In this document: in pieces, positions 27,018 through 29,786 of the stretch
Numbering within the stretch: the first letter of the stretch is position 1
How the letters are laid out: every line of letters starts with the position of its first letter
NCBI RefSeq assembly: GCF_044324875.1
Contig: NZ_CP172185.1
Reading direction: 5' to 3' (one strand)
Length of the DNA: 64,000 nt
Source: Escherichia coli
GTDB taxonomy: Bacteria > Pseudomonadota > Gammaproteobacteria > Enterobacterales > Enterobacteriaceae
Notes under the pieces: generated by a model
Seen by the model: the letters and a program-made list of their open reading frames with translations, nothing else
What the model was told of the DNA's origin: nothing
Database searches by the model: none
Position numbers and translations under genes: made by a program

Positions 27018-28367
27018 TTAGATAGCCCAGCCACCCGCATAGAAGGTCACCAGCGCCACAGCGATAACGACCGTACCGATGTTCAACTTGCGCCATTCGC
27101 CGGAAACCAGACGACCAATCACCAGAGTCGCGAAGCCGATCATGATGCCTGTTACGATGTTACAGGTCAGCACGATGAATACCGCCGTAACCAGACCCGC
27201 CATCGCATCAACAAAATCAGCAAAGTCGATTTTCGCCACGTTGCTCAGCATCAGCAGGCCAACGTACATCAGCGCTGGAGCCGTTGCGTACCCAGGAACG
27301 AGGTAAGAGAGCGGAGAGAGGAACAGAATCAGCAGGAACAGCACGCCAACGGTGATAGCCGTCAAACCGGTTTTACCGCCCGCCGCCGTACCCGCCGCAG
27401 ACTCAATGTATACCGCTGCCGGAGCTGCCCCCACCAGGCCAGAGAAAACGCTGCTCATGGAGTCAGTGGTCAGTGCTTTCCCGCCGTCGATGATCTGCCC
27501 GTCTTTATCCAGCAGGTTCGCCTGGCCGGCGACGGCACGGATAGTTCCGGTGGCATCAAATACTGCCGTCATCACCAGCGCCAGAACGCTTGGCAGGACT
27601 ACAGGATTCAGCGCGCCCATAATGTCCAGGCTGCCAATCAGTGAATTGCCGTTTTCATCGCTCAATGAAGGCATGGCGAAAACGCCGGAGAAATGGACGT
27701 TAGGATCGAAGATCAAACCGACAATTGAGATACCGATAATGGTCAGCAGAATGCCACCAGGGACTTTCAGTTTTTCCAGGCCGATGATCACCGCCAGACC
27801 TACCAGTGACATAATCACCGGGAAGGTCGCGAAATCACCCAGCGCAACGGGCAGACCATCAAGCGGGTTTTTAATCACCAGACCGACACCATTAGCGGCA
27901 ATGAGCAGCAGGAACAGACCGATACCGATCCCCGTGCCGTGCGCCACACCGTGCGGCAAGTTGCGCAAAATCCAGCTACGGATACCCGTGGCAGAAATTA
28001 CCGTAAACAGTACACCCATCAGGAACACAGCACCCAGCGCGACAGGTACGCTAATATGTTGCCCCAGCACCAGACTGAATGCGGTAAACGCCGTCAGGGA
28101 GATGGCGCAACCAATCGCCAACGGCAGATTAGCCCACAGACCCATCACGATAGAACCGAGTCCGGCAACCAGACAGGTCGCAACGAAAACTGCCGCAGGC
28201 GGGAAGCCTGCTTTACCCAACATGCCTGGAACGACGATAACCGAGTAGACCATCGCCAGAAATGTTGTTAACCCGGCAACCACTTCCTGACGGACAGTGC
28301 TTCCACGTTGTGAAATTTTAAACCAGGCGTCGAGTGAACCGCCGGTACGCGCTGATGGCGTAGACAT
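27018..28367 (-). CDS. ghxP: Guanine/hypoxanthine permease (NCS2 family)
   Basis: 449-aa polytopic ORF (the K-12 yjcD locus). Confidence 0.9.
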
Positions 28368-28482
28368 AAGAAAACATCCCCTGAGAGTTTAATTTTCGTC
28401 AAGATGCGTGGCGGACAATCCCCTGCCAGCGAAACGTTATCTTCCTGCTCCAGGTTTGCGACAAATTGGTGCGTCGCAAAAA

Positions 28483-28497
28483 AGCAAACGTTTAGCT
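28483..28497. promoter_or_regulatory. PurR-box-like palindrome upstream of ghxP
   Basis: AGCAAACGTTTAGCT resembles the PurR operator core GCAAACGTTTGC. Confidence 0.4.
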
Positions 28498-28623
28498 CCG
28501 CGCATACAAAACGGGTGGTAAAAAAAGCAAACGATTATCCGGCGATCATAGCGGCTTTTTCAACCGAAGTTTGCTGCTTTTTTCTCTTTTATTGTCTTGA
28601 CGATGAAAAACCAGGCAATTGAT

Positions 28624-28638
28624 GCGCAAACGTTATCG
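28624..28638. promoter_or_regulatory. Second, weaker PurR-box-like element
   Basis: GCGCAAACGTTATCG. Confidence 0.3.
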
Positions 28639-28774
28639 TCGATGCGCAAGATTGCAGCGTTATCGAGCCGCATACCGTTCAGGATTGCGATAAAAAATCG
28701 TCTGAGATGACAAAAATATTGCGGCTAAAAAGTGTACTTTTACACTGGAGAAGAAACGCCGGTGACATACAATT

Positions 28775-28915
28775 AAAGCATCAACACCAACCGGAACCTC
28801 CACCACGTGCTCGAATGAGGTGTGTTGACGTCGGGGGAAACCCTCCTGTGTACCAGCGGGATAGAGAGAAAGACAAAGACCGGAAAACAAACTAAAGCGC
28901 CCTTGTGGCGCTTTA
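28775..28915 (+). ncRNA. ryjA: Candidate small RNA convergent with soxR (RyjA-like)
   Basis: From memory, K-12 has the sRNA RyjA in the soxR-yjcD intergenic region. TACAAT -10-like element near 28766; the transcript would end at the shared hairpin. Strand and ends are uncertain. Confidence 0.3.
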
Positions 28916-28920
28916 GTTTT
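28891..28920. terminator. Bidirectional terminator hairpin overlapping the soxR stop codon
   Basis: Perfect 11-bp inverted repeat actaaagcgcc-cttgt-ggcgctttagt with T runs on both strands. Confidence 0.7.
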
Positions 28921-29377
28921 GTTCATCTTCCAGCAAGCGTGCGCCGGTACCTTCTTCTCCTAAGCGGTCGCCCGGGTTACGCAATGGGCAATCACTGCGC
29001 GAAAGGCAGCCACAACCAATACATCCGTCCAGCTCGTCACGCAGCGCCACTAAGGTATGAATGCGCCGATCCAACTCTTCTCGCCATTGGGACGAAAGCT
29101 GTTTCCACTCTTTCGCACTTAATGTATGCCCTTCGGGCAACACGCCAAATGCTTCACGAATGGTCGCCAGCGGAATGCCAATACGCTGAGCAATTTTGAT
29201 GATTGCGACATATCGCAACACATCACGTTTATATCGCCGCTGATTGCCACTATTACGGATACTGCTAATCAACCCTTTGCTTTCATAGAAATGCAGCGCC
29301 GATACCGCCACACCGCTGCGTTTTGCCACTTCGCCGGGGGTTAGCAGCGCTTTAATGCGGGGTAATTTCTTTTCCAT
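28913..29377 (-). CDS. soxR: Redox-sensing MerR-family regulator with 2Fe-2S cluster
   Basis: 154 aa; C-terminal [12 protein letters not shown] cysteine cluster. Confidence 0.95.
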
Positions 29378-29388
29378 AAATCGCTTTA

Positions 29389-29406
29389 CCTCAAGTTAAC
29401 TTGAGG
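29389..29406. promoter_or_regulatory. SoxR operator in the soxS promoter
   Basis: Perfect palindrome CCTCAAGTTAACTTGAGG between divergent soxR and soxS. Confidence 0.7.
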
Positions 29407-29462
29407 AATTATACTCCCCAACAGATGAATTAACGAACTGAACACTGAAAAGAGGCAGATTT

Positions 29463-29786
29463 ATGTCCCATCAGAAAATTATTCAGGATCTTATCGCATG
29501 GATTGACGAGCATATTGACCAGCCGCTTAACATTGATGTCGTCGCAAAAAAATCAGGCTATTCAAAGTGGTACTTACAGCGGATGTTCCGCACGGTGACG
29601 CATCAGACACTTGGTGATTACATTCGCCAACGCCGCCTGTTACTGGCCGCCGTTGAGTTGCGCACCACCGAGCGTCCGATTTTTGATATCGCAATGGACC
29701 TGGGTTATGTCTCGCAGCAGACCTTCTCCCGCGTTTTCCGTCGGCAGTTTGATCGCACTCCCAGCGATTATCGCCACCGCCTGTAG
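29463..29786 (+). CDS. soxS: AraC-family superoxide-response activator
   Basis: 107-aa ORF (MSHQKIIQDLIAWIDEH...). Confidence 0.95.
   Translation: MSHQKIIQDLIAWIDEHIDQPLNIDVVAKKSGYSKWYLQRMFRTVTHQTLGDYIRQRRLLLAAVELRTTERPIFDIAMDLGYVSQQTFSRVFRRQFDRTPSDYRHRL

Follow-up and report, generated by a model that had tools for sequence, protein, structure and literature searches.

The 545 bp that separate soxR from ghxP (yjcD) in E. coli lie between two genes read from the minus strand, and the locus raises the question of what this spacer carries and how it is transcribed. In the window (the whole 64-kb stretch of DNA that was analyzed), the ORF list bears out the extent that a preliminary description of the sequence had given for the spacer, and the spacer is present in 5,420 of 5,426 complete E. 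coli genomes. Against the soxR–ghxP spacer of K-12 MG1655, to which it aligns in reverse orientation, it shows 99% identity and eight substitutions, of which none fall within the small RNA (sRNA) or the PurR boxes described below and two fall in the sraL promoter region. Our reading, to which we give a probability of about 0.85, is that the spacer consists of two independent, divergently transcribed units, the sRNA gene sraL/ryjA and a PurR-controlled ghxP, each of which is already known in E. coli K-12. The recovery of such textbook-level features mainly shows that an sRNA and its neighboring operators are recognizable from raw sequence; what sequence comparison appears to add is a three-operator architecture at ghxP, an invariant TTGCGCA motif adjacent to a site at -104, and a covarying leader RNA. 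The features are collected in Table 1.

Table 1. Features of the soxR–ghxP region, in window coordinates
Feature	Coordinates	Strand	Basis or remark
ghxP (yjcD) CDS, guanine/hypoxanthine permease	27018..28367	-	ORF list, K-12 annotation, homologues named GhxP
soxR–ghxP spacer	28368..28912 (545 bp)		between two minus-strand genes
ghxP Shine-Dalgarno AGGGGA	28377..28382	-	near-invariant block, 9-10 nt upstream of ATG at 28367
Structured ghxP leader RNA (predicted)	28402..28507	-	RNAalifold, pair counts, covariance model
Leader helix P1	28507-28498 with 28411-28402	-	arms about 90 nt apart, six covarying pairs
Leader helix P1b	28497-28487 with 28438-28428	-	box 1 RNA pairing, one covarying pair
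Leader helix P2	28478-28473 with 28462-28457	-	all six pairs covary
Leader helix P3	28422-28419 with 28415-28412	-	no covariation, treated as weak
"Box 4", weak PurR-like match	28428-28443	-	8.05 bits, rank 16
Box 1, proximal putative PurR operator, AGCTAAACGTTTGCTT	28482..28497	-	18.96 bits, rank 1; about +31..+46, inside leader
Box 3, PurR-like operator over -10 and start, GGATAATCGTTTGCTT	28525..28540	-	11.5 bits, rank 7
ghxP sigma-70 promoter TTGAAA-N18-GATAAT	28534..28563	-	10/12 matches
Box 2, distal PurR operator, ACGATAACGTTTGCGC	28624..28639	-	18.34 bits, rank 2; about -112..-97
TTGCGCA motif	28643..28649	-	7/7 columns invariant, 17-sequence multi-genus alignment
sraL promoter, -35-like TGGAGA, 16-nt spacing, -10 TACAAT (28768-28773)	28746..28773	+	promoter scan 9/12
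sraL/ryjA sRNA gene, 141 nt	28780..28920	+	Rfam RF01408, K-12 ryjA b4459
Hairpin for sraL and soxR, perfect 13-bp stem, 5-nt loop	28889..28919	both	terminator scan, folds of both strands
soxR CDS	28913..29377	-	ORF list, K-12 annotation
soxS	29463..29786	+	ORF list, sequence reading

The preliminary description had placed a plus-strand transcript in the spacer, ending at a hairpin by the soxR stop codon, and had likened it to RyjA of K-12; this proved correct in both identity and strand. The Rfam family sraL (RF01408) matches the whole gene, over model positions 1-142, with 153.3 bits (E = 2.8e-36) against a gathering score of 39 bits, and it was the sole strong match in a permissive Rfam scan of 27900..29500. 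K-12 ryjA, at 4277926..4278066 on the strand opposite soxR, maps exactly onto 28780..28920 (plus strand), and the two sequences are 100% identical. In both genomes the gene is convergent with soxR and overlaps its 3' end by 8 nt. The window, which comes from a non-K-12 E. coli, differs in no substantive way from the K-12 gene: neighbor, orientation, overlap, TACAAT -10 element, terminator, and sequence are all the same, and the only differences are the two substitutions in the promoter region.

The 5' end of the K-12 RNA, mapped onto the window, puts the start of sraL at A28780, and a ryjA start has been detected in E. coli and K. pneumoniae (PMC3415461 supplement). The -10 element is of a type that would be read by sigma-S. 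SraL/RyjA has been described as conserved in enterobacteria, accumulating in stationary phase, and dependent on RpoS; in Salmonella, RpoS was bound in vivo at the sraL promoter by ChIP, and SraL represses tig (PMC3753932). According to a review of the work of Silva (2019), Salmonella SraL also shields the rho leader from premature termination (PMC6582626). The RNA associates with ProQ and Hfq (PMC6315103) and is reported in the literature to be polyadenylated. A scan with a DNA pattern derived from sraL retrieved 43 loci from many genera of Enterobacteriaceae, and sraL adjoins soxR in Salmonella, Klebsiella, and Mangrovibacter as well. Among three genera checked, sraL runs into the soxR coding sequence (28913-28920 in the window) only in the E. 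coli window and K-12; a gap of 32 nt separates the two in Salmonella (locus L048, 1193-1225) and a gap of 1 nt in K. pneumoniae (locus L041, 3394-3396). The gene is absent from Erwinia (L045, L046, L051) and Cedecea (L050). In Erwinia, where soxR is followed by the next gene after only 42-76 bp, the leader helix P1 and the ghxP promoter with boxes 1 and 3 persist in the absence of sraL, which argues that the sRNA and the ghxP control region evolve independently.

Transcription of sraL would end at the GC-rich hairpin and U tract at 28889-28923, which form a Rho-independent terminator with a 13-bp stem containing 6 G-C pairs, followed by TGTTCATCTT. The 3' arm of the hairpin carries the soxR stop codon (TAA, 28913..28915), and the same palindrome may therefore also close the convergent soxR message. 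In this it would resemble the bidirectional intrinsic terminators found between convergent genes, in which one perfect palindrome likewise serves two transcripts, here sraL and soxR; it would differ from them in having a strong U tract on the sraL side only and in extending into the soxR coding sequence as far as the stop codon. The perfect bidirectional hairpin of the preliminary description is thus retained for its 13-bp stem and for its position over the stop codon, while its symmetry is reduced: the terminator scan called for at least 5 T residues in a window of 8, which the plus strand alone provides, and in the soxR direction the stem is followed by GUUUUCC, with four U residues. This weaker tract, together with the sraL–soxR gaps in Salmonella and K. 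pneumoniae, speaks for an alternative in which the hairpin terminates sraL alone, soxR ends elsewhere or through Rho, and the overlap with the stop codon is incidental. We consider this unlikely, given that the hairpin is highly stable when folded in the soxR sense (-30.4 kcal/mol, z = -5.2), that UUUGUUUU spans the end of the stem, and that no further terminator-like site follows soxR within 28200-29100.

On the other side of the spacer, the minus strand contains a single promoter-like site between 28200 and 29100 according to the promoter scan, and this conserved sigma-70 promoter would start ghxP transcription near 28527. Searchable paper text yielded no experimental ghxP start or leader 3' ends. 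Relative to this predicted start, the boxes would lie at about -13..+3 (box 3), +31..+46 (box 1), and -112..-97 (box 2). Conservation was assessed over about 40 enterobacterial loci, the more distant of which were fetched through GhxP homologues; Yersiniaceae, Hafniaceae, and Pectobacteriaceae lay outside this sample. In a 17-sequence multi-genus alignment, the -35 and -10 hexamers are invariant across genera and the spacer between them varies. Mean column identity is 1.00 for the -35 TTGAAA, 0.95 for box 3 with the -10 GATAAT, 0.98 for box 2, and 0.95 for box 1, against 0.63 for the promoter spacer and 0.46 for the sequence upstream of box 2; overall, the boxes and promoter hexamers stand at 0.95-1.0, compared with 0.46-0.74 for flanks and spacer.

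The two elements that the preliminary description had likened to PurR operators share GCAAACGTT, at 28484-28492 and 28626-28634; this string occurs in 3 copies in the window, where 1.05 would be expected by chance. A PurR matrix derived from 27 of the motifs tabulated by Cho et al. 2011 (their Table 1), with the yjcD motif left out, was run over the 64-kb window on both strands. The two elements came out as its two best matches (boxes 1 and 2), with scores inside the 12.2-24.7 bits of the training sites, so the likeness is upheld for both; the distal element, as it had been described, is the reverse complement of the published motif ACGATAACGTTTGCGC. Box 3 scores just below the training range. 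The three boxes lie on the ghxP-sense strand in 35 of the 35 loci that include the ghxP start, and in all 35 the interval from box 2 down to box 3 is exactly 99 bp, with box 2 upstream; box 1 scores 16-20 bits in these loci and precedes the ATG by about 110–145 nt. In other genera box 3 scores 11-14 bits, and 14 of its 16 columns are invariant, part of which is due to its overlap with the -10 element. Box 1 is found in Salmonella, Erwinia, Mangrovibacter, Cedecea, and the metagenomic relative L052. Of these elements, Erwinia lacks only box 2 and retains the promoter with boxes 1 and 3; in Mangrovibacter, boxes 1 and 2 are present and box 3 is degenerate; and ESL0689, a reduced-genome enterobacterium, has no box 1.

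Evidence for PurR at this locus in vivo comes from ChIP-chip, in which the region 'ryjA/yjcD' was bound with a log ratio of 2.08 in the presence of adenine and was assigned the motif that we call box 2 (Cho et al. 2011). The published table gives one motif per region, and box 2 alone is listed for this one (Cho et al. 2011); converted to current coordinates, the region spans the entire spacer and all three boxes, so the signal does not tell apart which boxes are occupied. In the literature, yjcD/ghxP is repressed by adenine or HAP and belongs to the PurR-1 gene set. Set against the 16-bp ACGCAAACGTTTGCGT palindrome of the PurR regulon (Cho et al. 2011), box 2 equals the motif published for ryjA/yjcD, the score of box 1 is in line with bona fide sites, and ghxP behaves as a PurR-1 gene. 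In place of the one site published, PurR control of ghxP seems to use three conserved operators, apparently centered at -104, -5, and +38, of which box 2 alone is tied to the in vivo data; the conserved PurR-like box overlapping the -10 element would be an addition to the published picture. The preliminary description had missed this box, as well as the position of box 1 within a structured leader.

On our reading, PurR loaded with hypoxanthine or guanine shuts off the ghxP transporter. The predicted operator at box 3, lying over the -10 element and the start, would exclude RNA polymerase. The predicted operator at box 1 lies downstream of the start, within the transcribed leader, and would act as a roadblock, as do the downstream PurR operators of purB and of purR itself in its autoregulation. 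PurR binding inside an ORF is reported to block elongation there (PMC3159470). Box 2 offers no obvious repressor mechanism and lies unusually far from the promoter for a repressor site. The promoter scan found no promoter next to this distal box. The TTGCGCA motif sits 3 nt upstream of box 2 and recurs inside it 20 nt later, and neither a promoter nor a known site was matched to it; a second promoter at this position was considered and rejected, since the hexamers that follow the two TTGCGC motifs are, by eye, neither -10-like nor conserved.

The roughly 160-nt leader that begins at the predicted start is predicted to fold into a long-range helix, P1, enclosing the transcribed proximal operator and a second hairpin, P2, and the operator RNA may in addition pair with a complementary segment downstream (P1b). 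Box 1 sits between P1 and P2. For the comparison, the last ~150 nt before the ATG were aligned from 34 loci and trimmed to 31 sequences for pair counts. Across these 31 sequences, P1, P2, and P3 together are paired in 95.5% of cells, against 26–51% in controls with shifted partners; changes on both sides of a pair were seen at 12 pairs and in 46 cells, against at most 6 and at most 12 in the shifted controls. In 500 shuffles the covariation score of the leader was never reached, although shuffle controls overstate significance when sequences are related, as the tool itself warns, whereas shifted-partner controls preserve that relatedness. The helices hold 41 cells with G-U pairs, each of which would turn into an A-C mismatch if the other strand were folded; they pair only in the ghxP-sense strand, which therefore carries the fold, and a structure on the opposite strand was ruled out on this ground.

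P1 is rebuilt with different sequence in five other lineages: its arms read GUAUACGUGG / CCACGUAUAC in Salmonella, UGCGAAG / CUUCGCA in Mangrovibacter, UCUG(UG)UGC / GCACAGA in Cedecea, AUGCGUGG / CCACGCAU in Erwinia, and GUCAUGCGC / GCGCGUGAC in L052. It is weakest in E. coli, where 39 of 300 shuffles equal it, and it could not form if transcription were to start downstream of 28507. P1b is paired in 96% of cases, and one of its pairs runs C-G / U-G / U-A, never C-A. The weak fourth PurR-like match at 28428-28443 is explained by the complementarity of the P1b partner segment to box 1. Differences between the K-12 and window leaders are confined to the P2 loop (28463-28472), which reads CAGC in K-12 and CACC in the window; in other genera the loop contains a near-invariant CCCC that is the complement of the GGGG in the Shine-Dalgarno sequence.

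Trained on the leader alignment, a covariance model gives 126 bits in the window, 38 in Cedecea, 33 in Mangrovibacter, and 16–20 in Erwinia. It found no second leader copy in the 64 kb (best off-target E = 0.33), and blastn placed the leader once per E. coli genome, with no second copy. The paralogue ghxQ lies 35 bp after guaD inside the xanQ-guaD-ghxQ cluster, a position that accounts for its having no leader of its own. The search for a known RNA family on the leader was negative: Rfam gave no match with E <= 1 for E. coli, nor any with E <= 0.1 for six other genera. A full-text literature search found no paper describing a ghxP leader structure.

Two further candidates at the leader were rejected. 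An ATG within P1 (GTATGCG) opens a 22-codon ORF in E. coli; in many genera it is replaced by AAG, CTG, or TTG as part of the covariation of P1, and we therefore do not regard it as the start of a leader peptide. For pairing of SraL with the ghxP leader, the duplex energies were matched by 117 of 300 and 39 of 300 shuffled leaders.

Three competing explanations of the leader were weighed. The helices might be functionless, their covariation a product of related sequences and of conserved DNA sites for protein binding. Many of the pairs are indeed invariant, the shuffle controls overstate significance among relatives, and folding of single sequences is no more stable than that of shuffles (z = -0.40 for the E. 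coli leader and +0.29 for that of Salmonella). These points are outweighed by the shifted-partner controls, which keep relatedness and still fall far below the observed pairing and compensation; by the P1 arms, rebuilt some 90 nt apart in at least five lineages; by the strand-specific G-U pairs; and by P2, whose stem sequence changes almost completely while its pairing is kept. This explanation appears decidedly improbable, and the fold is taken here, on comparative grounds, to be a real, selected RNA structure. Slightly less improbable, in our view, is the converse: that box 1 is conserved for pairing of the leader RNA with AACGUUUCGCU rather than as a PurR operator, and that PurR acts through the distal site only. 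Box 1 always lies directly 3' of the 5' arm of P1, its 10-bp duplex with 28438-28428 is the well-paired P1b helix and appears in the minimum-energy fold of the E. coli leader, and in ESL0689, which lacks box 1, the 3' arm of P1 is likewise not identifiable; moreover, the published PurR table lists the distal motif alone. Against this, coincidence is a very unlikely source of a 16-20-bit PurR match kept in every genus at a purine gene already known to be under PurR, and the positions at which box 1 varies are those that the PurR matrix tolerates. The ChIP-chip region covers all the boxes and does not separate them, and in the Pluralibacter group the pair at the center of the duplex is lost without compensation (U-C or U-U). 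The two roles of box 1, as operator and as RNA strand, are in any case compatible.

The third explanation makes the leader a new riboswitch that senses guanine, hypoxanthine, xanthine, or a related nucleotide and would give the transporter a second purine sensor, at the RNA level. It draws on the covarying stems around conserved unpaired segments and on the three-helix arrangement upstream of a purine transporter, which the leader shares with the purine riboswitch (RF00167) and other purine-sensing leaders, and on its absence from Rfam. The resemblance to RF00167 stops there: the ghxP leader has no sequence or model similarity to it, its junctions are long and poorly conserved, and no expression platform was found, either as a terminator or as sequestration of the Shine-Dalgarno sequence, which is some 20 nt past P1 and free of pairing in the consensus. 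While the stems covary, the junctions beyond box 1 and the U run (GCUGGCAGUGGA and others) are lost in Erwinia, Cedecea, and L052, and outside Enterobacteriaceae no junction but box 1 is conserved. Binding of PurR to DNA already accounts for the conserved single-stranded sequence, and the leader differs from purine-sensing leaders in acting alongside a protein repressor. A classic riboswitch is improbable, and a metabolite sensor of any new kind seems the least probable of the three explanations.

A role in mRNA stability, processing, or termination is more likely for the leader than ligand sensing. Candidate functions would include a long, irregular duplex of P1, P1b, and P2 as a determinant of processing or stability, a shield for the long untranslated leader against Rho or RNase E, and a platform for protein binding. 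We tentatively propose, at slightly less than an even chance, that the ghxP leader is an undescribed conserved cis-acting RNA of Enterobacteriaceae and Erwiniaceae, in which box 1 does double duty, as an operator in the DNA and as a strand of a helix in the RNA, where its copy is enclosed by the long-range stem, adding a posttranscriptional layer to purine control, for example by RNase III processing, by protection from Rho or RNase E, or by providing a binding site for a protein or ligand. A difference from purB and purR is that the box 1 operator is embedded in a covarying RNA fold; to our knowledge, no such case of a transcribed operator is known for purB or purR. If functional, the leader would be a rare unannotated conserved mRNA structure in the best-studied bacterium, and a single sequence would be under selection both as a protein-binding site in DNA and as part of an RNA helix.

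Several smaller observations concern the leader and its surroundings. GGA motifs resembling CsrA sites occur in a leader junction (28441-28449, minus strand; CACAAGGAG in most genera, GCAGGAAG here) and in the Shine-Dalgarno region (28375-28383, minus strand), where GGA-containing CAGGGGAUG is CsrA-site-like. The distance from the promoter to the structured leader varies through an insert of about 45 nt in Klebsiella and Pluralibacter, which is longer in Pseudocitrobacter (about 100 nt), Cedecea (about 150 nt), and Citrobacter sp. 18056 (about 190 nt) (loci L041, L007, L008, L031, and L050). In most Enterobacteriaceae and in Erwinia, a gene of the glutathione S-transferase family, of ~220-230 amino acids, lies between soxR/sraL and ghxP (L041, 2468-3160; L003, 3104-3774; L045, 442-1104; L048, 1486-2154), at a site corresponding to 28640-28745 of the window; it is missing in Escherichia, Trabulsiella, some Citrobacter, and Cedecea and is split into ORFs of 167 and 87 amino acids in E. 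cloacae DSM 26481. Two contigs labeled 'MAG: Bacillota bacterium' (L018) and 'Chryseobacterium sp. 18061' (L034) carry an enterobacterial soxR-sraL-ghxP locus, with a GhxP in the former that is 100% identical to that of the window, and both are probably mis-binned or contaminant sequences.
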